Positions 4,221 to 20,581 of a DNA stretch of 64,000 bases are shown piece after piece (the first letter of the stretch is position 1; each line of letters starts with the position of its first letter). A model generated the notes under the pieces. It made no database searches, was not told the origin of the DNA, and saw only the letters and a program-made list of their open reading frames with translations. A program made the translations under genes and the position numbers. This DNA is from Burkholderiaceae bacterium. GTDB lineage: Bacteria > Pseudomonadota > Gammaproteobacteria > Burkholderiales > Burkholderiaceae_D. The DNA lies in assembly GCA_036384915.1 (NCBI GenBank), contig DASVLJ010000042.1, forward strand, positions 33,013 to 97,012. Reading direction: 5' to 3'.

Positions 4221-4688
4221 TTCTATCCTCTTTCCATTGCCAGTCAAAACCACGCAAGGCAGAAATGAAAAACCCGCCTCACGGGGCGGGTTGAATTGAC
4301 GCATGTTGCCTAGCCGTTACTCAGCCCACCATTGTTGTTCAATGATGATTGAAATTCGGACAGCGAATGTGCGCTTGAGGTTCATGACTTCAGCTTGCCT
4401 TGGCCCTCAGGAATTGTCAAGCGGCTGTGCCGACAGTTTCATGCGCGTGTCGGTGTCAGCACGTCCTTTAAAAGCACGAGTGCATTACCCACCGTCGGGC
4501 CGCTTGCATAGAAAGTCAGTTGCGGGCTGGGCGATGAAGGCAATATCGTGATGCAAGCGATCCAGCGGGCGGCTTGACCAATTACACCAACGAGTTCATC
4601 AAGGATATTGGCTTGCAAGACTCTCCACCCCGTCCTGGCCGGCTCGCTTGGGCCGGCTTTTTATTTGTGGGAGCATGAGCGATCCTGG

Positions 4689-4704
4689 CTGTATATTTAT
4701 ACAG
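4689..4704 (+). promoter_or_regulatory. LexA (SOS) box CTGTATATTTATACAG, 28 bp upstream of the VRR-NUC gene
   Basis: Perfect CTGT-N8-ACAG palindrome with an AT-rich spacer. The extended gCTGTATATTTATACAGta matches the E. coli-type LexA consensus TACTGTATATATATACAGTA. Confidence 0.6.
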
Positions 4705-4731
4705 TAAAATGACGTATCTCCTTGCTGCGCC

Positions 4732-6411
4732 ATGAACAACAACCTTGATCGCCCGTTCTACTACCTCGAGAACTTCAGTTTCGTTCTCGAGTGGGTGAGC
4801 CTGCGCTACGGCGATTTGCTCGATGCGGAAGAAGCGGCTTTCATAGCGGGGTTTGCCGCGCTGCCGGAAGCTTCTCGCGGTTTGCTGGTGCGTATGGTCA
4901 TGCGCAAGGGAGAATTGTTCCGCGCTTCGAAATTGCACTACGAGGAAATCGGCGCGATTGCACCGGCGGTGCAGCCCTTGATCGATATGGGGTGGATAGA
5001 GGCCGACCCGGAGCTGAGCTTGGAACAGCTATACGGCTTATTGACGCGCAAGGAGTTTGCCGATGCGCTAGGCCTTGGTGCCGCCAAGACGGCGCGCAAA
5101 GGCGATCTGTATGCGATGGCGGCGCAAGAGCAAAGCGCCCCGCGCAGTTTTTCGCAATGGTGTGCCGACCTGGCCGACACCGCTTATGAAATCCGCATTG
5201 GCGCCATATGCGACCGTATGCGCTTGATGTTCTTCGGTAACTTGCACCAGGATTGGTCTGAATTCATCCTGTCCGACCTTGGCGTTTACGCTTACGAAAA
5301 GATCGAATTCTCTGCCGACTCGCGCGCCTTTGCCGCACGGGCCGATATCGATTGCTATCTGCATATCGAGGCTTGCCGGGAATTGTTCCATTCCGGCTCT
5401 GAAGGCGAAGATACAGACGGCGAATTGGCCCGCCTGGAGCAGGTTGAGCACGATGTCATGGCGATTGCCGAAACCAATCCCTGGCTCGGCGAGCGCCGTG
5501 CGCGCTTGCTGTTTCAATTGGGGCAGCGGCTGGAACAACTCGAAGCGCATGAGCAGGCTTTGCGCGTCTATGAGGCAAGCGGATATTCCGGCGCCCGCCT
5601 GCGCCGCATCCGGGTGCTGGAAAAGAGCGCGCAATTTGCTGCCGCCATGAGCCTGGCGCGCGAGGCGCAAGCGGCACCCGAAAGCGCGGCGGAAACGCAA
5701 GGGCTGGAGCGCATGCTGCCGCGCCTGGCACGCAAGCTTGCCTTGCCACGCGAAACGGCCAGGCGCTTGCGCGCCGCCGATCGTATCGACCTCGTTTTGC
5801 CGGCGCCGACCGAAGACTACTACGTCGAAGAAGTCGCACGCGCACATCTCGCTGGAGCCGAACCACGGGCGCGCGTGTTCTATGTCGAGAACGCCTTGAT
5901 CAATTCGCTGTTCGGCTTGTTGTGCTGGGACGCGGTGTTCCACAACCTGCCCGGCGCCTTCTTCCACCCGTTCCAGAGCGGACCGTCCGATTTGCACAGC
6001 GCCGATTTCCGCAAGCGGCGCGCGGCGCAATTCGAGGCCTGCCTGAAGCAACTCGAAGACGGCAGCTACCGCGATGCAATCCGCGCCAATTTTCTGCGCA
6101 AGGCGGGCCTGCAGTCTCCGTTCGTGTATTGGCAGGTCCTCGACGAAGGCTTGCTCGAACTCGCCCTGGCTTGCATACCGGCGCAACATTTGGCGCGCTG
6201 GTTCGAGCGTATCCTGCAAGACATCGCCGCCAACCGCACCGGCTTTCCCGACCTGATCCAGTTCTGGCCCGAAGAGAAACGTTACCGCATGGTGGAGATC
6301 AAGGGGCCAGGCGACAGGCTGCAAGACAACCAGATCCGCCTGATCGATTTCGCGCTCTCGCACGGCATGCCCCTGGCCGTATGCCATGTGGCTTGGGAGG
6401 GCGAGGCGTGA
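4732..6411 (+). CDS. FAN1-like nuclease with C-terminal VRR-NUC domain
   Basis: 559 aa. The C-terminus VEIKGPGDRLQDNQIRLIDFALSHGMPLAVCHV is a VRR-NUC (PD-(D/E)XK) motif. The long N-terminal region and the adjacent helicase match the bacterial FAN1 architecture. Confidence 0.75.
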   Translation: MNNNLDRPFYYLENFSFVLEWVSLRYGDLLDAEEAAFIAGFAALPEASRGLLVRMVMRKGELFRASKLHYEEIGAIAPAVQPLIDMGWIEADPELSLEQLYGLLTRKEFADALGLGAAKTARKGDLYAMAAQEQSAPRSFSQWCADLADTAYEIRIGAICDRMRLMFFGNLHQDWSEFILSDLGVYAYEKIEFSADSRAFAARADIDCYLHIEACRELFHSGSEGEDTDGELARLEQVEHDVMAIAETNPWLGERRARLLFQLGQRLEQLEAHEQALRVYEASGYSGARLRRIRVLEKSAQFAAAMSLAREAQAAPESAAETQGLERMLPRLARKLALPRETARRLRAADRIDLVLPAPTEDYYVEEVARAHLAGAEPRARVFYVENALINSLFGLLCWDAVFHNLPGAFFHPFQSGPSDLHSADFRKRRAAQFEACLKQLEDGSYRDAIRANFLRKAGLQSPFVYWQVLDEGLLELALACIPAQHLARWFERILQDIAANRTGFPDLIQFWPEEKRYRMVEIKGPGDRLQDNQIRLIDFALSHGMPLAVCHVAWEGEA

Positions 6412-8648
6412 ACTACACCGTCGCCGTGCGCGCGTTGTGCGAATTTACCGCCAAGTGCGGCGACCTCGATCTGCGCTTCACACCGGCGCCGAGCGCGCAG
6501 GAAGGCATTGCCGGCCATGCGACCGTACGCGGCCGGCGCGGCGCCGGATACAAGGCGGAAGTCAGCCTTGAAGGCGAATACGGCCCTTTGCGCGTACGCG
6601 GCCGCGCCGATGGTTTCGATGCCAAGAAAAACCGGGTCGAGGAAATCAAGACCTATCGCGGCAGCCTGGAGCGCATGCCGGACAATCACCGGCAATTGCA
6701 TTGGGCGCAAGCGAAAATCTACGGCTGGCTGCTGTGCCAAAAATTGGACCTCGATGCGATCGAGGTGGCGCTGGTCTACTTCGATATCGGCGAGCAAACC
6801 GAGACGGTGCTGTGCGAGCGCCACGAAGCGGCGACACTGAGGCAATTCTTCGAGCAAAGCTGCGAACGCTTCCTGGCCTGGGCCGAGCAGGAAATGGCGC
6901 ACCGTGCGGAACTCGATACTGTATTGCGCGAACTCGGGTTTCCCTACCCGGAATTTCGCACCGGCCAGCGCGAATTGGCCGAGGCCGCATACAAGGCGGC
7001 AGCGGTAGGCTGTGCTGTGATGATGCAAGCACCCACCGGCATAGGCAAGACCGTGGGCACGCTGTTTCCCTTGCTCAAGGCGAAAGAGGCGAAGCAGCTC
7101 GACAAGATTTTTTATCTCGCGGCCAAGACTTCGGGCCGGCAACTGGCACTCGATGCGCTCGACCTGATCGCAGGCGGCAAACCGTTGCGCGTATTGGAGC
7201 TCGTGGCGCGCGACAAGGCTTGCGAACATCCGGATAAAGCTTGCCATGGCGATTCCTGTCCGCTCGCGCGCGGCTTTTACGACCGTTTGCCGGCGGCGCG
7301 CGGCGCCATGCTCCAGGAGCCACGCTTCGACAAGGCGGCGTTGCGCCGCGTCGCGCTCGAACACGAAGTGTGCCCCTACTACCTGGGCCAGGAAATGGCA
7401 CGCTGGGCCGATGTAACGGTGGGCGACTACAACTATTACTTCGACATCAGCGCCATGCTGCACGGCATGACCATGCTGCACCAGTGGCGCGTGGCCGTGC
7501 TGGTCGACGAGGCGCACAACCTGGTGGAGCGCGGACGCAAGATGTATTCCGCCGAATTGCATCAAGCTGACCTCAAGGCCTTGCGCGCCGCGGCGCCCGC
7601 CGAAGTGAAAGGTGCGCTCGACCGCGTGAACCGGCAATGGAATGCGCTGACCAAGGAGCAGGAAGCCGAATACCAGGTTTACCCGGCCATTCCAGATAAG
7701 TTTCTCGAAGCGCTGGAGCAGGCAAACGGCGCGATGGCGGATTATCTCGTAGCGCATGCCGACGGCATAAATGCCGAGCTGCAGCGCTTCTATTTCGACA
7801 TCGGCTTGTTTGTACGTCTGGCCGAAGCTTTTGGCGAGCACACTTTGTTCGATGTGGAAAAACCGAACAAGCATGACATCGTGCTCAACCTGCGCAACAT
7901 CGTGCCTGCGCCCTTCCTCAAGCCGCGTTTTGCTGCCGCGCATGCCAGCGTGCTGTTTTCCGCCACGCTTGCACCCTGGCAATTCTATGGCGACATGCTC
8001 GGCTTGCCGGAGGAGACGCCCTGGATAGACGTGGCTTCTCCGTTTCGCGCCGAGCAACTGGCGGTGTCGATAGAAAGGCGCATTTCGACACGCTGGCGCG
8101 ACCGCGATGCGTCGCTGGCGCCGATCGCCGATTTGATCGCGCGCCACTACAAGGGGGTACCGGGAAATTATCTCGCTTTCTTCAGCAGCTTCGATTACCT
8201 GCAGCGCGCGGCCGATCTGCTCGAATCCATCCATCCCGATTTGCCCATATGGCGCCAATCGCGCGATATGGATGAAGCGGCCAAGCAGGCCTTCCTCGCT
8301 CGCTTCACGTCGGGCGGGCGCGGCATCGGCTTCGCTGTCTTGGGAGGCGCTTTCGGCGAAGGCATAGATTTGCCCGGCGACCGCTTGATCGGCGCCTTCA
8401 TCGCCACGCTCGGCTTGCCGCAATTCAATGCGGTCAATGAGCAAATCAGGGAACGCATGCAAGAGATGTTCGGCGCCGGCTATGAATATGCCTACCTTTA
8501 TCCGGGCTTGCAAAAGGTGGTGCAGGCGGCCGGCCGCGTCATCCGCACCACGAGCGACCGCGGTACCGTGACCTTGATCGACGACCGCTTTGCCGCGCCG
8601 CAGGTGCGCGGGCTGTTGCCGGGTTGGTGGGACGTTGGAGTCGTCTGA
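6408..8648 (+). CDS. Cas4/RecB-like PD-(D/E)XK nuclease fused to an XPD/DinG-family (Rad3-like) Fe-S DNA helicase
   Basis: GTG start overlaps the VRR-NUC stop (GTGA, 4-nt overlap). N-terminus has GRADGFD...VEEIK (D..E.K nuclease motif). Walker A APTGIGKT and DEAH box VLVDEAHNL are present. Fe-S motif CEHPDKACHGDSC is typical of the XPD family. Confidence 0.8.
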   Translation: MNYTVAVRALCEFTAKCGDLDLRFTPAPSAQEGIAGHATVRGRRGAGYKAEVSLEGEYGPLRVRGRADGFDAKKNRVEEIKTYRGSLERMPDNHRQLHWAQAKIYGWLLCQKLDLDAIEVALVYFDIGEQTETVLCERHEAATLRQFFEQSCERFLAWAEQEMAHRAELDTVLRELGFPYPEFRTGQRELAEAAYKAAAVGCAVMMQAPTGIGKTVGTLFPLLKAKEAKQLDKIFYLAAKTSGRQLALDALDLIAGGKPLRVLELVARDKACEHPDKACHGDSCPLARGFYDRLPAARGAMLQEPRFDKAALRRVALEHEVCPYYLGQEMARWADVTVGDYNYYFDISAMLHGMTMLHQWRVAVLVDEAHNLVERGRKMYSAELHQADLKALRAAAPAEVKGALDRVNRQWNALTKEQEAEYQVYPAIPDKFLEALEQANGAMADYLVAHADGINAELQRFYFDIGLFVRLAEAFGEHTLFDVEKPNKHDIVLNLRNIVPAPFLKPRFAAAHASVLFSATLAPWQFYGDMLGLPEETPWIDVASPFRAEQLAVSIERRISTRWRDRDASLAPIADLIARHYKGVPGNYLAFFSSFDYLQRAADLLESIHPDLPIWRQSRDMDEAAKQAFLARFTSGGRGIGFAVLGGAFGEGIDLPGDRLIGAFIATLGLPQFNAVNEQIRERMQEMFGAGYEYAYLYPGLQKVVQAAGRVIRTTSDRGTVTLIDDRFAAPQVRGLLPGWWDVGVV
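8467..8630. repeat. Direct repeat copy 1 (164 bp, within the helicase 3' end), about 98% identical to 11349..11512
   Basis: Compared by eye. tgttcggcgccggctatgaata...ttgccgggttggtgg recurs 2882 bp downstream with about 3 mismatches. Confidence 0.9.
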
Positions 8649-8817
8649 CTTGGAACCGTCACTCGAAAGCAACGAAAATGCCTCGACCAAGATTTTCTGT
8701 CAGAATTGCGTCCGACCGAAGCGGCGAAGCTCTCCAAAAGTTATCGATTATTCTTGGCATTCGAGATCGAATGTGCGACTCTTAACGGAGCATGCTGCGT
8801 GTTTGTATTCGTTCAAA

Positions 8818-9228
8818 ATGGATCGTTTGACAGTCGAAAGACGAAGTTGGCTAATGGGGCGGGTTGGTTCGAAGAATACAACCCCGGAGCTTGCAGTGCG
8901 CCGGTTGGTTTTTTCGATGGGCTATCGCTATCGATTGCATGATATTCGACTTCCCGGCAAGCCGGATTTGGTTTTTTCGGGGCGACGGAAAGTCATTTTT
9001 GTCAACGGATGTTTTTGGCATGGTCATAAACGATGTCGCTATGCTCGATTACCCAAAACAAATGTGGATTTTTGGCAAGAGAAGATCGAACGCAATCGCG
9101 CAAGAGATCGAAAAAACAAAGCGCAACTGACTCGATTGGGATGGGGCGTACTTGTTGTTTGGCAGTGCGAATTGCGGAACATCGAAAAATTATCGGCAAA
9201 ATTATATGACTTCTTTGAACGAGACTAA
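8818..9228 (+). CDS. vsr: very short patch repair endonuclease
   Basis: LPGKPDLVFSGRRKVIFVNGCFWHGHKRC aligns with the E. coli Vsr core (FTHGCFWHHH). 136 aa. Overlaps the methyltransferase start by 23 nt. Confidence 0.85.
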   Translation: MDRLTVERRSWLMGRVGSKNTTPELAVRRLVFSMGYRYRLHDIRLPGKPDLVFSGRRKVIFVNGCFWHGHKRCRYARLPKTNVDFWQEKIERNRARDRKNKAQLTRLGWGVLVVWQCELRNIEKLSAKLYDFFERD

Positions 9229-10495
9229 TAAGCGTCCAATTGGGATCGATCTGTTCTCCGGGGCAGGTGGTATGTCGTTGGGGTTCGAGCAAGCTGGTTT
9301 CGATATTGCAGCCGCCGTGGAGATAGATCCCATACATTGCGCGACTCACGAGTACAACTTTCCGTATTCGAAGACCATATGTGCAAGTGTGGTGAACCTG
9401 ACCGGCGCGGAAATAAGACGTCGCGCAAATTTAAAGGACGCGGACGTCGACGTTGTATTTGGAGGGGCGCCATGCCAAGGTTTTTCCATGATAGGAAAAC
9501 GCGCGCTGGACGATCCAAGAAACCAATTGGTATTCCACTATGTTCGATTAGTGAGCGAACTTAAACCGAAATACTGCGTTTTCGAAAATGTTAAGGGCCT
9601 AACTTTGGGGCAGCATGCGGCTTTTCTTCAGGAATTGATTTCCGCGCTCGAGTCGGCTGGATATGACGTGCTTATGCCTTACCGAGTCTTGAATGCGGCG
9701 AATTTTGGGGTTCCTCAGGATCGCAAAAGACTTTTCCTGGTAGGCGCGCGCCGTGGTATGGAGTCTCCTCAATATCCCAAGGAGATCGCAGAGAGGGTTA
9801 CGGTTTGGGATGCGATTGGCGATTTGCCCGATGCAGACGAATTTGTCGAATTGAACACTGTGGACGAAGTGAGAGCTTCTTGGTTAACGCAATCCAAATA
9901 TGCGAGAAGGCTAAGGCTTCTAGATGTCGACTCGACAAATTTCGGCTATAAGCGCGACTTCGATAAAGATCTCTTATCTTCTAGCTTGCGAACCGAGCAT
10001 ACTGCTTTATCGAAAAAACGTTTCTTGGAGACAGAACACGGCAAGACGGAACCAATTAGCCGCTTCCGTAAATTGCCTCCAGATGGCCTGTGCAACACTT
10101 TGCGTGCCGGCACCGATAGTGCACGAGGTGCGTTCACCTCTCCACGCCCCATTCATCCGTTTCTTCCTCGCGTCATAACCGTGCGGGAGGCTGCGAGATT
10201 GCATTCCTATCCCGATTGGTTCAGATTTCATTCGACCAAATGGCATGGTTTCCGGCAAATCGGAAATAGCGTCCCGCCGCTTCTGGCGCGAGCAATCGCT
10301 CGCGAGATTGCTCGGGCAATGGGCATCCGACCGACTAAGCCAAAAATGCGACTGCAAACCGGGGATTCGGAACTGTTGACTTTCGATATGGGCGATGCCG
10401 CAACGTACTTCAACGTTCCTCGCAACACAATTGCCCAGCGTAGTCGAAAAAGCGACCCAAACCAACCCAACTTGTGGGAAGAAAGCTATGCCTAA
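9206..10495 (+). CDS. dcm: DNA (cytosine-5)-methyltransferase
   Basis: Motif I DLFSGAGGMSLGF, motif IV GGAPCQGFS, motif VI FENVKGL, motif X QIGNSVPP. ATG at 9206 (MTSLNETNK) chosen over the upstream ORF start. Confidence 0.9.
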   Translation: MTSLNETNKRPIGIDLFSGAGGMSLGFEQAGFDIAAAVEIDPIHCATHEYNFPYSKTICASVVNLTGAEIRRRANLKDADVDVVFGGAPCQGFSMIGKRALDDPRNQLVFHYVRLVSELKPKYCVFENVKGLTLGQHAAFLQELISALESAGYDVLMPYRVLNAANFGVPQDRKRLFLVGARRGMESPQYPKEIAERVTVWDAIGDLPDADEFVELNTVDEVRASWLTQSKYARRLRLLDVDSTNFGYKRDFDKDLLSSSLRTEHTALSKKRFLETEHGKTEPISRFRKLPPDGLCNTLRAGTDSARGAFTSPRPIHPFLPRVITVREAARLHSYPDWFRFHSTKWHGFRQIGNSVPPLLARAIAREIARAMGIRPTKPKMRLQTGDSELLTFDMGDAATYFNVPRNTIAQRSRKSDPNQPNLWEESYA

Positions 10496-11300
10496 GTCGG
10501 GGGAGAAGAAAAAACCAAACCGTTATCAAGCGATTATCGAACGGGTATTTTTGAATCGCTTCACTCCCAAGACTACGGAATTCGAATTTACCAGAGACGA
10601 ATTTGTATCGACCGCCAAGACGCTGGAGGTGGAGCTGCCGAAGAATATAGGCGATGTTATCTATTCTTTTCGCTACCGAAATGAACTTCCTGACGCAATC
10701 CGGAATACCGCAAAAAGCGGCTTCGAATGGATAATCGAGGGAGCGGGGCATGCACAATATCGCTTTCGACAAGTGAAATTCAATCGAATTCTCCCTCGGG
10801 CAGAGCTAATAACAATTAAGGTGCCAGACGCCACGCCGGAAATAATCGCGGCCTACTCGCTGAGTGACGAGCAAGCATTGCTGGCGAAGGTACGGTATTC
10901 GCGTTTGGTAGATGTCTTTCTGGGGGTAACAGCTTTTTCGTTGCAGAATCACCTGCGAACGACGGTAAAGAGTGTGGGGCAGATCGAAATAGACGAAATT
11001 TATGTCGCAATTGATCGTCATGGTCGTCAGTACGTGATTCCGGTACAGGCGAAGGGTGGCAACGACAAGCATGGTGTCGTACAGACGCAGCAAGATATTT
11101 TGTGTTGTGCCGAGAAATTTCCGAATTTGATTTGCAGAGCGGTTTCGGCGCAATTCATGAGCGCAAATAGAATTGCGATGTTCGAGCTTGCAGTTCAAAA
11201 GGATGAAGTGAAGGTGGTCGACGAAAAGCACTATCAACTTGTTGCAAGTACCGATATCACCCCGGAGGATTTATCGTTGTATTCACGGCGTAGCGATTAG
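10488..11300 (+). CDS. putative type II restriction endonuclease (family not recognised)
   Basis: Overlaps the methyltransferase stop by 8 nt (operon). Carries a PD-(D/E)XK-like IEIDEIYVAID...VQAKG signature. The position next to an m5C methyltransferase and vsr suggests the cognate REase. Confidence 0.5.
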   Translation: MPKSGEKKKPNRYQAIIERVFLNRFTPKTTEFEFTRDEFVSTAKTLEVELPKNIGDVIYSFRYRNELPDAIRNTAKSGFEWIIEGAGHAQYRFRQVKFNRILPRAELITIKVPDATPEIIAAYSLSDEQALLAKVRYSRLVDVFLGVTAFSLQNHLRTTVKSVGQIEIDEIYVAIDRHGRQYVIPVQAKGGNDKHGVVQTQQDILCCAEKFPNLICRAVSAQFMSANRIAMFELAVQKDEVKVVDEKHYQLVASTDITPEDLSLYSRRSD

Positions 11301-11348
11301 AGAGCCCCTCAAAACGCAGGCATTGGTTACAGATGCGAGGGCCTCCGG

Positions 11349-11524
11349 TGTTCGGCGCCGGCTATGAATACGCCTACCTTTATCCGGGCTTGCAAAAGGT
11401 GGTGCAGGCGGCCGGCCGCGTAATCCGCACTACGAGCGACCGCGGTACCGTGACCTTGATCGACGACCGCTTTGCCGCGCCGCAGGTGCGCGGGCTGTTG
11501 CCGGGTTGGTGGCATGTACAATAG
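11349..11524 (+). pseudogene. Duplicated 3' end remnant of the helicase gene (direct repeat copy 2; alternative ending ...PGWWHVQ*)
   Basis: Encodes FGAGYEYAYLYPGLQKVVQAAGRVIRTTSDRGTVTLIDDRFAAPQVRGLLPGWW, identical to the helicase C-terminus, but has no upstream gene body. Confidence 0.7.
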
Positions 11525-11609
11525 CGACGGCACCCGAAGCCGGGAAAACTTGCGAGAAATGCGCAGGCGCGGCTACACTTCAGGCTCGTATTTCTCTCAA
11601 ATTATCCCA

Positions 11610-11804
11610 ATGAAGAAGATATTCCATATCGCCGGCGCGCTCGGCGTGGCCTTGATCGTGCAATCGGCGCGTGCCCAATCGGTCGATAAACCCGTCTTCA
11701 AGGAGGGCGACAACTGGGAATACCAATACTTCGACACGTGGTCGAACCGCATGACATCGACCTTCTCCAAGCAAGTCATCGGGGTTTCAGGCGATTTCGG
11801 GTAG
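11610..11804 (+). pseudogene. N-terminal fragment of a gene for a secreted protein, interrupted by the IS1-family element
   Basis: MKKIFHIAGALGVALIVQSARA signal peptide. The frame terminates at a TAG inside the left IS terminal repeat. Removing 11800..15536 restores the frame into the 15536..16027 ORF (…SGDF-VRISYDLRE…). Confidence 0.8.
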
Positions 11805-11864
11805 TGTCTCAGTTTGATTTGTAACAGCGTTTTCATGCTTGAGCGGTCATGCTATCCTTGATGC

Positions 11865-12095
11865 ATGGCTACCAGACCCAAAAAGCTCGACTTGAACCAG
11901 CTCGCTAAGCGCATCGTAGATGAAGCCGCTGGCGAAGAACCTATCACACCAGCGCCACCCGAAAAAAACAAAGCCGCCCAAGAACTGGGGCGGCTAGGTG
12001 GCATCAAGGGCGGTGCGGCTCGCGCTAAGAGCCTTACACCAGAACAGCGTAGCGATATCGCCAAGAAGGCGGCAGCTAAGCGATGGGCAAAATAG
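11865..12095 (+). CDS. small basic hypothetical protein (76 aa), IS passenger
   Basis: MATRPKKLDLNQLAKRIVDEAAGEE...GRLGGIKGGAARAKSLTPEQRSDIAKKAAAKRWAK. Lys/Ala-rich, likely nucleic-acid binding. Family not identified. Confidence 0.5.
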   Translation: MATRPKKLDLNQLAKRIVDEAAGEEPITPAPPEKNKAAQELGRLGGIKGGAARAKSLTPEQRSDIAKKAAAKRWAK

Positions 12096-12125
12096 CTTCC
12101 CAAAAAGCCGCGCTCCAATTCTTAT

Positions 12126-12956
12126 CTAACTTTGCAAAGTCACCGTGATTTCGACAGCGCTATCGTCTTCGTCATACACTTGACTCACATTCATTGCAAA
12201 GGTTTGAAACCAGCGCAAGCGCTTCGTTGCAGGCCATTGCTCCCCTTGCTTGGGAATCTTCTGCAAGAGCGCTAAAAGCAGCGGATCAAGGTCTAGTCCA
12301 GTAGTACCGCCACCACCGTTTCCGCCATTTCCTCCTGTATTGCCATCGTTCGCATTCGCCTGCTTTGCCGGATCGGCATCCTTAACCAATACTGCGGGTA
12401 GAACTAGCTTATTGGGGCCTTGCTCTCGAAATCCGGTTTGTTGTGCGGAGCTTTCGAATACTTGTCGTGCACGTCCTTTCTGCTTTTCCGACACGCCGAG
12501 AGCGGCAATTTCTCGCTCTAATGCAGCGCTTGGCGGTGTGACATGACCTTTGTATTTATCATACAGCGCTCGAAACAGCGGAACACGAAGGAACGCCTCG
12601 GCCTTGGCTTGCCTAGCCTGGGATTGATCTACAACGCGTCGTCCCAAATCTGTCAAGTGGTAGCTCTCGGCGTCATTACTTTCAATCAGCCCGAACAAGC
12701 GGGCTGCCGCTAATTGAGACCTATAACTACTGCTTTTTGGGCTTTGGTCCATCCAAGCGGCAAGCTGGGAAGTAGCAGAACAATCTCCATGCCCAACATT
12801 CCCATGAATCGCCAGTGCCACAGCGACCGCAGCCTCGTAATCCGAGTAAGGGAATCCAATTGTTGAACGCTGCCGAGTCCTGACATCATCGGCAGCCCCT
12901 TCATCTTCGCCGTCAATTGCTTCGACATTTTCGCTCACGTGGATATCTCCGGTCAT
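12126..12956 (-). CDS. hypothetical protein (276 aa) with internal Gly-rich linker, IS passenger
   Basis: Long ORF in the low-GC segment. Gly-rich linker NTGGNGGNGGGGTTG separates a roughly 200-aa N-domain from a roughly 55-aa C-domain. No recognisable family. Confidence 0.55.
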   Translation of the reverse strand: MTGDIHVSENVEAIDGEDEGAADDVRTRQRSTIGFPYSDYEAAVAVALAIHGNVGHGDCSATSQLAAWMDQSPKSSSYRSQLAAARLFGLIESNDAESYHLTDLGRRVVDQSQARQAKAEAFLRVPLFRALYDKYKGHVTPPSAALEREIAALGVSEKQKGRARQVFESSAQQTGFREQGPNKLVLPAVLVKDADPAKQANANDGNTGGNGGNGGGGTTGLDLDPLLLALLQKIPKQGEQWPATKRLRWFQTFAMNVSQVYDEDDSAVEITVTLQS

Positions 12957-13289
12957 GTTAATGAACTGATGAACTGGAGTTTAATGCCGCCATTCGGTTA
13001 AGTCAATGCGAAAATTGGATAAATAACGAAATTCCTGTTTACTATCCGTTTTAGGCATTATAGAATGCACGGAACGATAGGAGAATGCCATGAGAAGATG
13101 CTGCGGCCTTAACTGAAATCGCCCGGTTAAGGCCAAAAGAAAGGCCCCAACAGCTAGAGACCTTTGGAGAGGGCAAGCAGTTGGGGCCGTGGCGATACAT
13201 TTTGCGAAGCGTTGCGGGCACCCGATTCCCCTAACAACCTAGAACACCCTGCGCCAACAGGGTGCGCTCTAGGAGAAAGGAGGTGCCAC

Positions 13290-13424
13290 ATGGATAAAAA
13301 ATCTTATCCTCCTGTGCCTGAAGGCTATGTGCTGAAGTTCGTGTCACACATTACGGTCAACGGCAAGGTTCTGTATGCGAAAGCATACGGCAAACGCGCT
13401 TGGCCGATCTTGGTTAAAACCTAA
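13290..13424 (+). CDS. small hypothetical protein (44 aa) upstream of the transposase
   Basis: Strong RBS (AGGAGG) 7 nt before ATG. MDKKSYPPVPEGYVLKFVSHITVNGKVLYAKAYGKRAWPILVKT. Could be an InsA-like small regulator; unverified. Confidence 0.35.
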   Translation: MDKKSYPPVPEGYVLKFVSHITVNGKVLYAKAYGKRAWPILVKT

Positions 13425-13532
13425 GAGTCGCCCGCACGCCTTCGCTTTTTACATTTTAAGCTAAATAAAGCCTCAAAACAACTTGCACATTCTTGCTCGC
13501 TCAAGCATAATTCATTTTAAGGAGGCAGGAAA

Positions 13533-14360
13533 ATGAATAAGCTGAGCTTACAAAAACGCACACAGATCATCGGCCTGCTGGTTGAGGGCAACTCAATGCG
13601 CGCCGCCTCCCGCCTCGCTGATTGCAGCATTAACACCGTTACCAAGCTGCTCGTAGATGTTGGCTACGCCTGCCAGTTCTACCAAGCCCAGGTCATCAAG
13701 AACGTTCAAGCCAAGCGCGTTCAATGCGACGAGATTTGGTCTTTCTGCTACTCGAAGGAAAAGAACGTCGCGCCGGAAGACAAGGGCATATTGGGCCACG
13801 GCGATGTGTACACATGGACTGCCATCGATGCTGATACAAAACTCGCCATTTCGTGGCTCGTCGGTCGCCGCGATCTTGAGTATGCTGAGGTGTTTATCGA
13901 AGACTTGGCATCGCGCCTTGCTGGCCGCATCCAGCTAACCACGGACGGCCACGGCCCGTATATTCCAGCCGTGGATAGAATCTTTGGCGGGGCAATCGAC
14001 TACGCCATGTTGGTGAAGCACTACGAAGGCCAATCCAACACGGATCAACGTCGCTACAGCCCCGCCCAATTCGTCTGCGCAGAGAAGCGCCGCATCAGCG
14101 GCCTGCCGTTTGCCAAGCATGTTTCAACTAGCTTTGTCGAACGCCAAAACTTGACCATGCGGATGGGCATGCGCCGCTTCACGCGGCTGACAAACGGCTT
14201 CAGCAAGAAGATCGAAAACCTTGAGCATGCCGTGGCGCTGCACTTCATGCATTACAACTTTTGCCGCATCCATAAGACGCTGAAGACTACGCCCGCACTC
14301 GAAGCGGGGATTGCTGACAAGCTTTGGAGCATTGAGGATATTGCGAAGCTACTAGACTGA
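13533..14360 (+). CDS. IS1-family (ISMhu11 group) single-ORF DDE transposase
   Basis: N-terminal HTH MNKLSLQKRTQIIGLLVEGNSMRAASRLADCSINTVTKLLVDVG. RVQCDEIWSFCYSKEKNV and the C-terminal ...HKTLKTTPALEAGIADKLWSIEDI are characteristic of this transposase group. Confidence 0.8.
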   Translation: MNKLSLQKRTQIIGLLVEGNSMRAASRLADCSINTVTKLLVDVGYACQFYQAQVIKNVQAKRVQCDEIWSFCYSKEKNVAPEDKGILGHGDVYTWTAIDADTKLAISWLVGRRDLEYAEVFIEDLASRLAGRIQLTTDGHGPYIPAVDRIFGGAIDYAMLVKHYEGQSNTDQRRYSPAQFVCAEKRRISGLPFAKHVSTSFVERQNLTMRMGMRRFTRLTNGFSKKIENLEHAVALHFMHYNFCRIHKTLKTTPALEAGIADKLWSIEDIAKLLD

Positions 14361-14648
14361 AATGGCAACAAATCTAATTTCTAATAGATTGATTTCGTTT
14401 TCCGTTACCGTAAACAGGAACGTAAGCGTAAACGGAAATCCATAATTTACATGCTGCGAGCTTGTCCGCAAAAGATATACTTGCGGGTCCGTTCCTGGAA
14501 TAGGCGTAGCGTCCTCTAAAGGATTCCGCGCCAACCTCCAAGACCAACCGCATTCCCACCAATCCTGAAAACGAGGATACGCTGCGGCAAGGCGATCCAA
14601 TTCTGCCGAAACACTAACTGATTCTGAAATTGTTTTGGCAAAAGTCAT
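14352..14648 (-). CDS. putative toxin (98 aa, unrecognised family) encoded immediately after the Panacea-domain antitoxin
   Basis: Its ATG directly abuts the Panacea gene stop (TAGATG), a typical TA operon arrangement. C-terminal YLLRTSSQHVNYGFPFTLTFLFTVTENEINLLEIRF has a RelE/ParE-like beta-rich flavour but was not confidently assigned. Confidence 0.5.
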   Translation of the reverse strand: MTFAKTISESVSVSAELDRLAAAYPRFQDWWECGWSWRLARNPLEDATPIPGTDPQVYLLRTSSQHVNYGFPFTLTFLFTVTENEINLLEIRFVAISV

Positions 14649-15182
14649 CTATGCCGCCAATTTTTCTTTAGCCCATGCGAAATCTGTTTCATCCACCTCT
14701 CCAACATCCGATGCAAAGACGGTGGCCAACGGGATTTCTTCTCCCATATTGGCAATTCTCCAGATTATACCGTGCGTTTCCTCGCTAACAGTTTTGGCGG
14801 TATGGTTCAGGCAAACATGCTCAAATGCAGAATCAACTAGCTTAATTTCATCTACCGAAAAAATAGATGTATCGCATTCGGCAATAGCAATATATTCGGT
14901 TTTGACGAATCCAAAATGATCCACGCGCCCGCGCGCAATCAAGCCCTCGGCAACTAATTGATCGACCGCTGACACGATATGCCTCGGCACTGGCCCATGC
15001 TGACGCTTCACATAAGATTCGCCGGTAATCGAATGCCCGGTGACCATATAGCGAATTGAATCAGAATACCAAAGTACCTTATTAAGTTTTACCGCCCCAA
15101 GAACGGAAGGGTCCGATGCCTTTTCGCAAATATAATGCACCAGCGCCTTAAATTTTTCCCAGTTCATAGTTTCCATTTTCAA
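14649..15182 (-). CDS. Panacea-domain (DUF4065, SocA-like) antitoxin
   Basis: 177 aa. KLNKVLWYSDSIRYMVTGHSITGESYVKRQHGPVP matches the Panacea domain core. AT-rich promoter region lies upstream inside the IS. Confidence 0.7.
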   Translation of the reverse strand: MKMETMNWEKFKALVHYICEKASDPSVLGAVKLNKVLWYSDSIRYMVTGHSITGESYVKRQHGPVPRHIVSAVDQLVAEGLIARGRVDHFGFVKTEYIAIAECDTSIFSVDEIKLVDSAFEHVCLNHTAKTVSEETHGIIWRIANMGEEIPLATVFASDVGEVDETDFAWAKEKLAA

Positions 15183-15535
15183 GCTCCTGTATTCAATGTG
15201 GAGCGAAATCTCAAAATTTCCAGCAATTTAAACGCCAACGCATAACTTTGCTCGCGCGGAACGCTCGCAGTCAGGGTAGCATATTTTATGCAAGTCAAGC
15301 AATTTTTACGTGCGAATGCAATAAAAGTATGTTGCGCGGAAATTTCATAAATAACAACCTGTCATTGTTGTCAGGTACTACGCAAAATTTTCGCTCGCCG
15401 TTAGGCATCATATTAGTTAAATAATTTCAAAATCATGAGTAACAATTTATGAATTTTGTTTTTGCTTTTTAACAACGCCGAAAATCAAGGAATATCAACG
15501 CCTGTTACATTTGATCTGAGACACTGCCCGATTTC

Positions 15536-16027
15536 GTGCGCATCTCCTATGATTTGCGCGAGATTTCCAAGACCGGCGATATCGGCCGGCCGCAGCAATC
15601 GGAAAGCACGGTGCGCGCGGACCTGAATGGCACCACGATGTCGGGCAGTGAAAAGTTCGACCGGCTCAACTACAAGTGGCCGCTCGAAACGGGCAAGAAG
15701 TGGACTTCCCAATTCAAGTCCGATCTGCCCCCGGCCGCTGTCAATGCCCCGTCCCAGGTCATGACGACCACGATGGATTCCGAGGTCAAGGGCTGGGAAA
15801 AGGTCAAGACGCCGGCCGGCGAATTCAATGCCCTGAAAATCGTCGTCAAGGGCAGCTGGAGCGTGAGCAATTCCGCCGCCAGCACCGGGTCGGGCACCTT
15901 CAATGCCGCGCACTGGTACAGCCCCGATGTGAAAAGCGACGTGCAATACACCTATGAAGCCTTCAGTGCCGACGGCACACCGGGGAACAAGACCAAGCAG
16001 GTGTTGAGCAGTTACAACTTCAGGTAG
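15536..16027 (+). pseudogene. C-terminal fragment of the IS-interrupted secreted-protein gene
   Basis: Starts at the G of the right target-site duplication copy. Frame continuity with 11610..11799 after precise excision of the IS plus one TSD copy. Confidence 0.8.
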
Positions 16028-16790
16028 GCCGGCGTTCGGAAGCCGGCAGCAAGACGGCCGCGGCGACCGCGGCAAGCAAGTGCTTGAGTGTGTGGCCGCT
16101 GATCACATGCAGCAGATCCTGCAGTTGGTGGTCGTACAGCTCGGCAAGCTTGGCTGCGCCATACAGGACGATGGCGGCGGCGAGCGCCAGGCGTCTGGCC
16201 CGCGGCGCGTGTGCCGTGGCTTGCCATAGCGGAATCAGCACCACAGGTAGTATCTGGAATAGCAAATACCAGCGCAAGTCGCCGACGCCGCATAGGTCGG
16301 TGATGCGCCACCAAAGGACGCCGGCGACGGCCCCGAACGCCAGCAGCAGCGTATCGCGCATCTCGGCTGCCCGGCGCGGGCGCGGATGCCACTCGGCGCG
16401 TGTCGCCGCCAGCAAGCCGGCGCAGGTCAGTGCGGTCGGCATGCGGTCCCAGACCAGCCGCGCATTGTCGGGCGCGAGGTGATAGTAGCCGGAGCCGACG
16501 GTGGTTAGCAGCAGGCCGGCCAGGAACAAGCGATAGCCGTAGCACCCCGGCTGCCATGCCTTGCCGCAAAACAGCGATCGCAATTTCCACAGTCCCCAGA
16601 AGGCGACGAGAGCGAAGCTGCCATTCGACAGCACGTCGCCGGCATGCGGTATGCCGAGAACATTGCCCTGGTCGGCAAATTGATGATAATCGGCGAATTG
16701 GGCGACCGGCCCATGTATCCACAAAACCGCAATCAATATCAGCGTCAGGGCGGCGGGAAGTTGGCGCGGCATGATATTCCTCCTTTTCAT
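16020..16790 (-). CDS. ceramidase-family integral membrane protein (alkaline ceramidase-like)
   Basis: Multi-TM protein with FADYHQFADQGNVLGIPHAGDVLSNGSF, reminiscent of bacterial ceramidase/PF05875 proteins. Start uncertain (16790 or 16772). Confidence 0.5.
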   Translation of the reverse strand: MKRRNIMPRQLPAALTLILIAVLWIHGPVAQFADYHQFADQGNVLGIPHAGDVLSNGSFALVAFWGLWKLRSLFCGKAWQPGCYGYRLFLAGLLLTTVGSGYYHLAPDNARLVWDRMPTALTCAGLLAATRAEWHPRPRRAAEMRDTLLLAFGAVAGVLWWRITDLCGVGDLRWYLLFQILPVVLIPLWQATAHAPRARRLALAAAIVLYGAAKLAELYDHQLQDLLHVISGHTLKHLLAAVAAAVLLPASERRPT

Positions 16791-16917
16791 GCCGGCAGCA
16801 TGCGCCGCAAAAGCGCCGAGGCAAATGGCCGTGCAAACGGTAGCAAAGCCTGCCGCTCCGCGTAGCAGGTGATGCTACCTTGAGTGTTAGACTGCGGGTT
16901 TACCTTCACGTCCGGCC

Positions 16918-17673
16918 ATGTCCCTGCCGCCTTTGCACAAGACCTTGGAAGAATGCGCATTTCGCGCCCTGCCCGCCCCGCGGACGCAGGTGTTTGACGG
17001 TTGGGTTGTGCGTCTGGCCGGCGGCGGGCCCAAGCGGGCCAATTCGGTCAATGTGGTCGATACCTCGACGCTGCCTTTGGCGCATAAGATCGGGCATTGC
17101 GAACAGCTGTTTTTGGAACAGGGCCTGGCGCCGACGTTTCGCCTGACCTGGCATGAGGTCGACGCCGGGCTCGATGCATTGCTTGCCGCACGCGGCTATG
17201 TGCGCCAGGATGAAAGCATCGTCATGACGCTCGCGCTTGATGCAATCGATACCACCGATATGGCGAGCGCGGCATGTACGCTGCTTGCGGCGGACGAATG
17301 GCTACAATTGCTGCCGCGCATCGATCAGGGCACGCCGGAACGCAAGCGAAAACATGTCGAGTTGTTGCGCCGACTGGATTTGCCTGCACTCTATGGCGCT
17401 GTCGAAACAAGCGGTGAATACCATGCCATGGGGCTGGTCGTGATCGACGACGATTACGCCGGGTTGTTCGATATCGCAACCTTGCCCGGATTCCGGCGCC
17501 GGGGGTACGCACGTTCGTTGACCCGTGCGTTGCTGCACGGGGCCAAGCGCCAGGGAGCGAAATCGGCTTACTTGCAAGTCGTGGCGGGGAATAGTGAGGC
17601 CGTGACGCTGTACGCCTCACTCGGTTTTGCCGATTGTTACCGCTATTGGTATCGCGTGCGTGATACCGCTTAA
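16918..17673 (+). CDS. GNAT family N-acetyltransferase
   Basis: C-terminal LPGFRRRGYARSLTRALLHGAKRQGAKSAYLQVVAGNSEAVTLYASLGF is a GNAT acetyl-CoA binding fold motif. Confidence 0.7.
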   Translation: MSLPPLHKTLEECAFRALPAPRTQVFDGWVVRLAGGGPKRANSVNVVDTSTLPLAHKIGHCEQLFLEQGLAPTFRLTWHEVDAGLDALLAARGYVRQDESIVMTLALDAIDTTDMASAACTLLAADEWLQLLPRIDQGTPERKRKHVELLRRLDLPALYGAVETSGEYHAMGLVVIDDDYAGLFDIATLPGFRRRGYARSLTRALLHGAKRQGAKSAYLQVVAGNSEAVTLYASLGFADCYRYWYRVRDTA

Positions 17674-18003
17674 CGGATACCGAACATGGGAAAAATCATG
17701 TTCCCTTGTTTCAGGCGAGTGCGCAGCCTGCGTGAAAGTCGAACAAGACTGGATGGCTCCTTGGTTTCCGCTTGGTATGTCTTCGTCCGGTACTTCGGCA
17801 CGGGTTTAAACAGCATCTCAATCATTATCATCCTCTCGTCGCCCGAGCAATTGCAGGCGCAATTCGTGTTTTGCAATGCGGCGCGCTGCGCGCCGCGGGT
17901 TATAGGCGTCGTGGCTGCCGGCCTTGCGCTGCCTGGCGGGCAGCGCGACCGGATTGCGCGGTTTGGGCGCCTTGGGTAGCGTTATCTTGATCTTCATGGT
18001 TCT

Positions 18004-19212
18004 TCATCCTTTGATGCAGACGACCTGGCGCAGCGTGTGCGCCACTTCCACCAGGTCGCTCTGGTGTTCCATCACCGTATCGATATCCTTGTAAGCCGCC
18101 GGAATTTCATCGACCACGCCGCCATCCTTGCGGCATTCGATGCCGCGCGTCTGCTCTTCGAGGTCGAAGCGATTGAAGCGGTGCTTGGCTTCGCTGCGGC
18201 TCATGCGCCGTCCGGCGCCGTGCGAGCACGAGCAAAATGAATCGGGGTTGCCCTTGCCGCGCACGATGTAGCTCTTCGCCCCCATGCTGCCGGGGATGAT
18301 GCCGAGTTCGCCCTGCCGCGCCGAAATCGCTCCCTTGCGCGTGACGTACAGCTTTTCATTGGCATGCTCTTCAATGGCCACATAGTTATGGTGGCAATTG
18401 ATCGCTTCGCCATCGAGCTTGAACGGCGGCAGTTGTTCCGCCATCGCGTCGACCACGCGGCGCATCATTTCGCGCCGGTTGATCATGGCGTAGTCTTGCG
18501 CCCAATCCACCGCTTCCACGTAGTCGTCGAACCATTGCGAACCCTCACTGAAATAAGACAAGTCGCGGTCGGGCAGGCGCACCTGGTGCCGCATCATGTC
18601 TTTCTTCGCCGCCGAGATGAAATAGCGTCCGATCACATTGCCGATGCCGCGCGAACCCGAATGCAGCATGATCCATACGCGCTGTTCTTCGTCCAGGCAG
18701 ACTTCGATGAAGTGATTGCCGCCGCCCAAGGTGCCCAGCTGGCAAATCCAGGTCTGGGCAAACTTGTGCTGCATCTTCATGATGCCCTTGTGTTTTGCCA
18801 CGATGCGGTCGAGCCGCTCGTTCAAGGGCCGGCCCACACGGGCATGGGCCGAACCGCGCACCTTGTTCCATTCGTGCTGCTCGAAGCCGACCGGCACGCG
18901 CAACTCGATGGCGCTGCGCAATTTCGCCAGACTGTCGGGCAGATCGTTGGCCGTCAGCGTGGTGCGCACGGCATTCATGCCGCAGCCGATGTCGACGCCG
19001 ACCGCGGATGGAATGATGGCGCCGCGCGTCGGAATGACGCTGCCGACCGTGGCGCCGGTGCCGTAGTGGACGTCCGGCATGGCCGCGACGTGCGGGTGGA
19101 CGATGGGCAGGCTCGATATGTTGATGAGCTGCTGTAACGCGTCGTGCGCGATATCGTCGGTGTAAATGTGCACAGGTACCAGCCCCTTGTGCAGGCTTTG
19201 TTTGATGGGCAT
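18004..19212 (-). CDS. rtcB: RNA-splicing ligase RtcB (second paralog)
   Basis: 402 aa with HPHVAAMPDVHYGTGATVGSVIPTRGAIIPSAVGVDIGCGM, the canonical RtcB metal-binding region. Full-length match to E. coli RtcB. Confidence 0.9.
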   Translation of the reverse strand: MPIKQSLHKGLVPVHIYTDDIAHDALQQLINISSLPIVHPHVAAMPDVHYGTGATVGSVIPTRGAIIPSAVGVDIGCGMNAVRTTLTANDLPDSLAKLRSAIELRVPVGFEQHEWNKVRGSAHARVGRPLNERLDRIVAKHKGIMKMQHKFAQTWICQLGTLGGGNHFIEVCLDEEQRVWIMLHSGSRGIGNVIGRYFISAAKKDMMRHQVRLPDRDLSYFSEGSQWFDDYVEAVDWAQDYAMINRREMMRRVVDAMAEQLPPFKLDGEAINCHHNYVAIEEHANEKLYVTRKGAISARQGELGIIPGSMGAKSYIVRGKGNPDSFCSCSHGAGRRMSRSEAKHRFNRFDLEEQTRGIECRKDGGVVDEIPAAYKDIDTVMEHQSDLVEVAHTLRQVVCIKG

Positions 19213-19487
19213 AACAATTCCTTTACTGCTTCGTTATGCCGGTGCGTCTTTGGAAGCGACTATGCGTCGCGCAAAAACAAAACCCCGATGAGTTTCCTCA
19301 CCGGGGTTCGTGGACGACCGGCTCGGGTCGGCTTGCGCCGTGCCCCGAGCGATGCGCGCGGGGCTAGTTGTGAATCGTGTTCTTGCTAGCCGTACGTGGC
19401 ATGGTCCGTCCTTTCGAAAATGTGGTTGGTAAAAAATTCTGAGATGCGATTCTGCTGCATATGCGGGCAGTGTGTCAATTCTCAAGT

Positions 19488-20519
19488 TCACACGCGTTGT
19501 ATTTTCACCTCGCTCATGTGGCCGTTTGCGTTACCGCGCTTCTCAAACGAAAAGCGCACGGGCAAGAATTTCTCGATCACCGCCGCATTGGTTTGTGCAT
19601 GCAATGAAATGCTTTCCGCCGTGTAGCTGCCGCCGCCGGCCAAGGCCATCGGCAGCATTACCTGATCGGCCAGGTGTTCGCCCAAGGCAGCGCCTGAGGC
19701 CAGATAGCGCTGCGCCTCGCCGATCGCCGTCTTGGCGACGGTCTCGGCCGGCACGCCTTTCTCGCCGAACGCGCAAAACATTTCACTCACGTGTTCATAC
19801 TCGAACGTCAGCAGCAAGGCATTGCCGGGGCCGTGCACGTCTTGCAGATTACGTCCCTGCAATTGGGTTTCATCCCAGCCGAAAGCGGAAGCCACTGCCT
19901 GCAACTCGCGCTTGGCGACGCTGTAAGGCACATTGGCCACCAGGCTTTCGCCATAGGCGCGCTTGCGCTCGCCGCGTTCGATCAAGTCGATGGGCTGCAA
20001 ATTGGCGCAAGGTTCGACCGTGGCCGAGATCATGCCGCCGCCCGCCGGATAGAAACCGTAGCGCAACAATTGCAGATCGACCTTGACCCCCATCTTTGCC
20101 AGGATGGGCAGGAACGCTCGCTGCAAAAACTGCACCGGCGGCGCCTTGGCATTATGCGTACCGCCGCTGACGCGCACCTGCGAAGGGGCATCGGCGAACA
20201 ATAACGCCGGCAATATCGTTTGCAGTACCAGTGTGCAGCTTCCGGCCGAGCCGATAGCGAATTCATAACGTCCGCCGCGTATCTTGCCCGGCACGAAGGC
20301 CAGCACGTTGGTACCGACTTCGGCATGGTCGAGCACCGCGCCGCATGCTTCGGCCGCCGCTTGCACGGCCACCAGGTGCTGGCGCATCAAGCCCGGCTTG
20401 GGCCGGTTGGCGCGAATGTTTTCAATGCGAAACGATTTCCCTGTGATCATCGAGAGTGCAAGCGCACTACGCAAAATCTGGCCGCCGCCTTCGCCGGTCG
20501 AGCCATCCAACACTATCAT
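19488..20519 (-). CDS. rtcA: RNA 3'-terminal phosphate cyclase
   Basis: [44 protein letters not shown] matches E. coli RtcA [27 protein letters not shown]. Start set at MIVLDG. Confidence 0.9.
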   Translation of the reverse strand: [343 protein letters not shown]

Positions 20520-20581
20520 CTTGTTTTCTTTCTTGTTCTTGTGTCCGGCAGGGCCGGCCTTTGCCGAACCCTGCCTTGCCT

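Follow-up and report, generated by a model that had tools for sequence, protein, structure and literature searches.

The locus analysed here lies in a 64-kb window of a Burkholderiaceae contig (DASVLJ010000042.1, positions 33,013 to 97,012 of the forward strand; all coordinates below are those of the window) and consists of a Rad3/XPD/DinG-family helicase gene, a compact restriction-modification (R-M) operon at its 3' end and, beyond the operon, a second copy of the end of the helicase gene itself. The helicase (746 amino acids, aa; 6408..8648, forward strand, as are the R-M unit and its repeats) carries the Pfam domains DEAD_2 and Helicase_C_2, matches TIGR00604 (rad3) and has an exact protein match in HEX7643108.1, 'ATP-dependent DNA helicase [Burkholderiaceae bacterium]'. 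Copy A of the repeat (8467..8630) is the last 164 bp of its coding sequence before the final codons, and copy B (11349..11512) is a displaced fragment of the helicase 3' end. The initial annotation of this DNA had noted a near-exact recurrence between these positions, and the pairwise and three-way alignments that set the borders agree, with 161 of 164 positions identical and mismatches at 8489/11371 (T/C), 8540/11422 (C/A) and 8549/11431 (C/T). Our initial repeat search of 6000-14000 returned one long direct repeat, 8467-8635 versus 11349-11517; of the five extra positions of this 169-nucleotide extension, three match by chance. The 164-bp pair is the sole near-identical long repeat across the window, and no larger duplicated block contains it, a circumstance that would have counted against linking the repeat to the R-M genes.

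Between the joints 8630/8631 and 11348/11349 lies a segment of 2,718 bp (8631..11348) that is absent from the three relatives described below, and whose G+C (guanine plus cytosine) content of 0.49, against 0.62 for the helicase gene and 0.60 for the window, shows it to be compositionally foreign. It opens with a leader of 187 bp (8631..8817), non-coding save for a doubtful extension of the first gene from a TTG start at 8650 that some gene callers use. The first gene, vsr (136 aa; 8818..9228), codes for a very-short-patch T:G mismatch endonuclease (Pfam PF03852 at 4e-27, TIGR00632 at 3.6e-42, PADLOC Vsr at 3.7e-30) and exceeds the curated cutoffs of both families, with 143 bits against 97.85 for TIGR00632 and 94 bits against 27 for PF03852. 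It overlaps by 23 bp a C5-cytosine DNA methyltransferase gene (429 aa; 9206..10495; PF00145 at 1.2e-69, TIGR00675 at 1e-59, PADLOC MTase_II at 5.4e-173, PDB 3g7u at 6.9e-79), which in turn overlaps by 8 bp the gene of a predicted type II restriction endonuclease (270 aa; 10488..11300); a 3' tail of 48 bp (11301..11348) completes the insert. The best solved relative of the methyltransferase is 3g7u, itself of unknown specificity, and its target-recognition region matches 3g7u alone and neither HaeIII nor HhaI.

The restriction enzyme returned no match in Pfam, NCBIfam or PDB sequence searches, and matches the PADLOC REase_II model PDLC03404 from end to end (5.6e-124). The fold predicted for this protein has a helical/winged-helix part at the N-terminus and, after it, a PD-(D/E)XK core, in which the alpha-beta-beta-beta-alpha-beta arrangement of that superfamily and its acidic and lysine catalytic residues can be recognized. 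The PD-(D/E)XK endonuclease candidate of the initial annotation thus gains support, both from the PADLOC match and from the orthologous methyltransferase gene that lies directly upstream, on the same strand, in 78 of the 80 metagenome loci encoding a relative of this enzyme. From their sequences we read the three genes as a type II R-M operon with Vsr: the methyltransferase (M) and restriction enzyme (R) genes are separate, linked and co-inherited, as type II systems require, with an 8-bp overlap here and adjacency in those 78 loci and on plasmids. The earlier description of a low-G+C 2.7-kb segment with overlapping vsr, 5-methylcytosine methyltransferase and endonuclease genes is confirmed by length, composition and profile matches. 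Pfam and NCBIfam profile searches found no integrase or transposase domain in the insert, a repeat search found no terminal inverted repeats at it, and there is no tRNA gene across the window. A simple scan of 8300-11900 found no promoter-like or terminator-like sites and gives no independent evidence on transcription.

Importantly for the origin of this arrangement, the empty site can be seen. A search with the helicase protein against one genome per species identified as closest relative the Burkholderiaceae metagenome-assembled genome (MAG) DASVYZ010000129 (L001), 94% identical at the protein level and about 90% at the nucleotide level, with every other match at or below 68%; apart from the sampled population itself, the helicase search revealed no further relatives at 94-100%. 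By BLAST, L001 4660-8718 corresponds to window 4570-8630, 8555-9005 to 11349-11799 and 8998-12818 to 15529-19302. L001 therefore holds a single 164-bp segment (8555-8718), bordered on the left by the flank of copy A, collinear with the window to exactly 8630, and on the right by that of copy B, with 93.8% identity over 11349-11799; the left flank of copy A and the right flank of copy B are thus the ancestral ones. This is the outcome that the initial annotation had proposed as its test, namely that a relative without the R-M unit should hold one copy with both flanks collinear, and no relative was found that has the island and only one repeat copy. A protein-database search brought up two further relatives, L195 and L196, at 86% amino-acid identity; these likewise have no R-M unit, the helicase gene being followed by a DUF3108-like gene or the next gene, then by an acetyltransferase gene and RtcB.

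The relationship of the two copies to L001 also bears on when the duplication arose. Copies A and B are each identical to L001 at 157 of 164 positions, and because they have in common five states in which L001 differs, they are sister sequences made within this lineage. Their divergence of 1.8% amounts to about 40% of the 4.3% by which the segment differs from L001, while population diversity is at most 0.06%; since the repeats have diverged so far beyond the diversity of the population, the insertion is not recent, and it has persisted despite repeats that should permit RecA-dependent deletion.

The same structure recurs in independent data. The exact restriction enzyme protein is present on 13 contigs, and the complete arrangement is found in at least nine independent metagenome samples (ENA assemblies of one project; contigs BAND20-1 and SAMN134814xx) with 99.94-100% identity and the same three copy-specific single-nucleotide polymorphisms (SNPs). 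Because at least nine independently assembled samples give this structure, it is not a misassembly.

The duplication has a direct consequence for the reading frame of the helicase, which ends in WWDVGVV at 8648, whereas the open reading frame (ORF) through copy B ends in WWHVQ at 11524. The first 18 nucleotides of the insert (8631..8648) supply D-V-G-V-V-stop, and H-V-Q-stop (11513..11524), now detached from the gene, stands where L001 has S-V-Q-stop. Because L001 ends in WWSVQ and other orthologues have tails of the xVQ type (WWEVQA, WWHVQL..., WWQVQ and similar), HVQ is the ancestral helicase tail and DVGVV a new one encoded by the insert. The initial annotation was thus right that the helicase keeps an intact frame ending in DVGVV, but the HVQ that it called the alternative tail is the ancestral one. 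The residues after WW vary in length and sequence among about 95 orthologues, and because of this natural variation the exchange of HVQ for DVGVV is probably harmless. Copy B, joined to an ATG in the insert tail, forms an ORF of 63 aa (11333..11524) that shows Helicase_C_2 (Pfam) on residues 10-61 and is called as a gene in nine contigs; most likely it is a gene remnant. On its other side the helicase gene is preceded by the gene of a FAN1-like VRR-NUC nuclease (4732-6411), with which it forms an operon of two genes, the helicase gene being the last. This nuclease has 559 aa with FAN1_HTH, SAP and VRR-NUC domains, its gene overlaps that of the helicase by 4 bp, and the pairing of the FAN1-like nuclease with the Rad3/XPD-like helicase (4732-8648) is kept in L195 and L196.

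Homologues of the R-M unit elsewhere help to define its limits. The restriction enzyme family has 1,165 representatives at the 50% clustering level, some of which form the C-terminal domain of proteins of 610-735 aa (P0132, P0133, P0139, P0174, P0212); the N-terminal part of such proteins has the size of a methyltransferase, and they are presumably methyltransferase-restriction enzyme fusions. In about half of the 80 metagenome loci mentioned above, vsr precedes the methyltransferase gene. Compared with 80 other cassettes, the insert shows DNA homology from the vsr start codon (8815-8818) onward, and this fades at about 11270, within the restriction enzyme gene. The unit thus has no conserved ends; neither the 187-bp leader nor the 48-bp tail has a homologue in the 80 cassette loci, in 80 helicase loci or in the window itself. 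Members of the family occupy many unrelated chromosomal sites, a tRNA-att island (L142), the Paracoccus MOBV plasmid p12374 (as vsr-M-R) and ColE1-type plasmids of 4-6 kb in Klebsiella, Salmonella and E. coli, where they are annotated only as 'endonuclease' or 'hypothetical'; a literature look-up of one plasmid, pB1019, for a recognition specificity found nothing. This spread of contexts, small mobilizable plasmids among them, shows a family that is clearly mobile by several routes.

Taken together, these observations place the locus in the class described as insertion with long target duplication (Nobusato et al. 2000, Gene 259:99; Furuta, Abe & Kobayashi 2010, Nucleic Acids Research (NAR) 38:2428, PMC2853133), which is defined by R and M genes within an insert of less than 20 kb, a repeat of more than 30 bp, alignment to an empty site and the absence of mobility genes (PMC2853133). 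Here the R and M genes lie within 2,718 bp, the repeat is 164 bp of helicase-coding sequence and not of tRNA or att type, both copies align to a single L001 sequence with homology on both sides, and the insertion is not attributable to an integrase, a transposase or another mobile element. We put at roughly 80% the probability that a foreign 2.7-kb R-M operon was inserted at the helicase 3' end with a 164-bp target duplication and without integrase, transposase or defined ends, a reading that the initial annotation had already put forward and that the empty site in L001 and the agreement with the published class now support. The mode, which it called described for R-M units but rarely annotated, is already catalogued for dozens of R-M systems (PMC2853133). 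In this class, repeats frequently extend across a start or stop codon, which allows the target gene to survive (PMC2853133).

Three considerations weigh against this interpretation or limit it. First, the sequence does not settle the molecular mechanism, and microhomology at the joints is not scorable without the flanks of the donor. Second, all three differences between copies A and B are synonymous, at the third codon position of the helicase frame (TAT/TAC, GTC/GTA, ACC/ACT), which is mildly unexpected under neutral drift of copy B (about 1/27 for three random sites) and would fit copies derived from two functional alleles; the figure weakens once one of the changes is assigned to the selected copy A, and three sites are not significant. 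The pattern may reflect chance, a two-allele origin or selection on the 63-aa ORF. Third, no second clean long target duplication was found among the 43 related cassettes whose flanks were adequate, and for this reason the mode must be called rare for this cassette family.

Three of the related loci bear repeats of other kinds. L116 has multi-copy repeats, and L149 has a flanking repeat of 56 bp at 86%. L095 (metagenome contig Ga0207854_1000010, Oryzomonas-like) has an SDR gene with a vsr-M-R cassette that belongs to this family and a PIN/DUF6364 toxin-antitoxin pair downstream of it; the end of the SDR gene is found at 4850-4938 and again at 8821-8909. This second SDR end (the last 89 bp of the gene) directly follows the restriction enzyme gene and is 85% identical to the first, with 10 of the 13 differences synonymous; both copies finish in a stop codon, and Oryzomonas sagensis and O. 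rubra carry other genes at the insertion place. We considered L095 as a second clean long duplication and rejected it: compared with the Oryzomonas genomes L185 and L186, homology runs 52 bp past copy 1, which indicates a substitution, and the second SDR copy appears to be a piece of an orthologue from another species, brought in with the island.

How the operon joined the chromosome is a separate question from whether it did. We tentatively favour, at not quite even odds, one event in which two illegitimate joints formed at target positions 164 bp apart, because it needs the fewest steps and because copies A and B are sisters. The joints could have arisen through capture of incoming DNA between breaks in sister chromosomes or through a replicative template switch into and out of foreign DNA; a staggered cut by a transposase would not be required. 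The insertion would owe its survival to the duplication, which keeps the helicase ORF intact, only HVQ being swapped for DVGVV.

The rival that survives best leaves the insertion itself undisputed and differs only in how the unit was joined: a circularised fragment from a sibling strain, carrying the R-M operon and a helicase 3' end, would have entered through one RecA-dependent crossover in the 164 bp of homology, as in a Campbell-type integration. The synonymous differences between the copies hint at such a source, being what two functional alleles would supply, and DVGVV bears some resemblance to natural tails (WWDVQ..., WWHVGVD..., WWQLGVA) and might be the donor's own gene end. Two contigs, L168 and L169, show the junction expected of a circular form, and the xenologous 89-bp gene-end fragment beside the restriction enzyme gene of L095 gives a faint parallel. 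Nevertheless, we consider this route unlikely. It takes more events, since the donor must first have received the insertion, a joint falling precisely at 8467/11348 must have closed the circle, and the crossover must have followed; the five derived states that A and B share relative to L001 would make the donor nearly the same strain; and the presumed precursor arrangement was found in no genome in our helicase scans. Moreover, the two junction contigs may be artefacts, and L095 turned out to be a substitution and not a clean duplication.

The two contigs deserve closer description. The protein cluster of the 63-aa ORF includes a 65-aa variant, MRGPPV...WWDVGVV, encoded on L168 (1,505 bp) and L169 (953 bp), which come from samples SAMN13481414 and SAMN13481422 and correspond to window 10917-11512 joined to 8631-9551. 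Their order is the 3' end of the restriction enzyme gene, the repeat with its three B-type bases, the A-type right flank, vsr and the methyltransferase gene, with a private SNP in each contig (9100 G>A; 11139 G>A). Such a junction could stem from recombination within the final 81 identical bases of the repeat, yielding an excised circle or a tandem duplication, an origin we hold to be rather improbable; it is explained equally well by an assembler taking the wrong exit from the 81-nucleotide identical stretch. The Logan contig L178, with a hybrid repeat, demonstrates that assemblers do mix the copies, and samples 414 and 422 yield no contig with the normal junction. That the R-M unit is still moving, with recombination between the repeats releasing circles or building tandem copies in the natural population, is accordingly doubtful to the same degree.

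The remaining rivals concern the insertion itself and fare far worse. It is highly improbable that the unit is ancestral and was lost from L001, L195 and L196 by recombination between the repeats. Such recombination would restore exactly the single-copy arrangement of L001, and yet three relatives at two phylogenetic depths have no unit, the 80 more distant helicase loci have none either and end in tails of the xVQ or another native type, the G+C content of the insert is foreign, and the nearest relatives of the cassette reside in unrelated genomes and plasmids. Furthermore, a unit flanked by repeats would still have had to arise by insertion in the first place.

Equally improbable is that the R-M unit travelled as the passenger of a larger element mobilised by an IS1-family transposase, with 8631-15528 as one island. 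Low G+C does extend to about 15.5 kb, and a transposase gene of this family lies at 13533-14360, as profile searches show. They belong, however, to a separate IS1-family element of 3.7 kb (11800-15528), 288 bp downstream of copy B, with imperfect inverted ends of its own (left, GGTAGTGTCTCAGTT...; right, as reverse complement, GGCAGTGTCTCAGAT...) and an 8-bp target duplication that belongs to it alone, CGATTTCG (11792-11799 and 15529-15536); the low G+C beyond copy B is due to this insertion. The 451 bp between the two insertions (11349-11799) are ancestral, and because this spacer is collinear with L001 the two insertions were independent events. No copies of the IS1-family ends occur near 8631 or 11348, and IS1-type transposition creates target duplications of 8-9 bp, not of 164 bp. 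We therefore reject mobilisation of the R-M unit by IS1 on account of the ancestral spacer, the separate ends and the lack of such ends at the R-M borders. The earlier statement that no integrase, transposase or insertion sequence (IS) ends are present accordingly holds inside the unit, where no such domain occurs, but not for its surroundings.

The IS1-family element carries further genes as passengers: one for a SocA/Panacea-domain protein (14649-15182), preceded by that of a small partner (14352-14648), an ORF of 276 aa on the minus strand (12126-12956) and one of 76 aa. Its insertion splits a DUF3108-like secreted-protein gene (11610-11799 and 15529-16027) that is intact in L195. Farther downstream, at 18000-21300, two RtcB RNA-ligase paralogues flank an RtcA-like gene for RNA 3'-phosphate cyclase; at about 72% nucleotide identity, these paralogues are the only other long repeats in the window.

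Least probable of all is an assembly artefact in which the helicase 3' end was falsely duplicated or the R-M contig mis-threaded, as the hybrid repeat of L178 and the alternative path of L168 and L169 might suggest, given that at least nine independent sample assemblies follow the identical path with the same copy-specific SNPs, that each copy is tied to unique flanks on both sides and that three differing positions make two distinct sequences.

If the operon was inserted with duplication of its target, as we prefer to read the locus, several features would help it to establish itself and persist, judging from what is known of R-M operons. Co-oriented with the nuclease-helicase operon, it probably owes at least part of its transcription to read-through. 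The order of methyltransferase before restriction enzyme, with their 8-bp overlap, would protect the host during establishment, and Vsr would repair T:G mismatches arising from deamination of the 5-methylcytosines that the methyltransferase makes. Persistence between repeats that have diverged by 1.8% would fit post-segregational killing of cells that delete the unit.

The way in which R-M operons without a recombinase enter chromosomes is an unsolved problem of mechanism, and the class with long target duplication is known from genome comparisons only. The present locus offers a clean test case, with base-exact joints, empty sites at two phylogenetic depths and a reading frame rescued by the duplication, and many public read sets cover its population. 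With repeats that have diverged by 1.8%, the locus shows that an R-M unit can stay for a long time despite repeats prone to deletion, which bears on the idea that such units stabilise themselves by killing.

Among known processes, homology-facilitated illegitimate recombination in transformable bacteria, which de Vries and Wackernagel are said to have described in 2002, reportedly integrates foreign DNA through illegitimate joints and without a dedicated recombinase. In contrast to the present case, that process normally deletes or replaces recipient DNA, needs a homologous anchor in the donor and leaves no target duplication. As for later stages, an 'amplify and release' step has been proposed for a virus-like life cycle of R-M units; to our knowledge, release has never been observed. 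The tandem amplification of BamHI in Bacillus, as it is cited in PMC2853133 (Sadykov et al. 2003, ref. 84 there), resembles our locus in that the unit lies between long direct repeats. L168 and L169 carry the junction that a tandem copy or circle would have, but it falls in the 81-nucleotide identical part of the repeat, where a mis-join by the assembler may account for it.

The plasmid- and island-borne type II operons with vsr and a 5-methylcytosine methyltransferase (PDLC03404 family) share with the present operon the (vsr-)M-R order and the overlapping genes. They move, however, on plasmids or on a tRNA-att island, whereas here the operon sits naked in the chromosome, and since their restriction enzymes have 54-77% amino-acid identity to this one, the specificity may differ.

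Compared with the published class, the locus reveals no new kind of element; it belongs to a known one. Its repeat of 164 bp falls within the published range of 46 to about 420 bp and, as in published cases, mobility genes are lacking, the repeat lies at the stop-codon end of a gene and the host gene is intact (PMC2853133). Betaproteobacterial cases from Burkholderia, Acidovorax and Neisseria are already listed (PMC2853133). Here the repeat ends 9 nucleotides before the stop codon, and the insert supplies a C-terminus of five residues. Our evidence comes from metagenome assemblies and not, as a further difference, from finished genomes. What is new relative to that class is the host, an uncultured soil/rhizosphere Burkholderiaceae MAG, and the cassette, a vsr-M-R operon with a restriction enzyme of an uncharacterised family.

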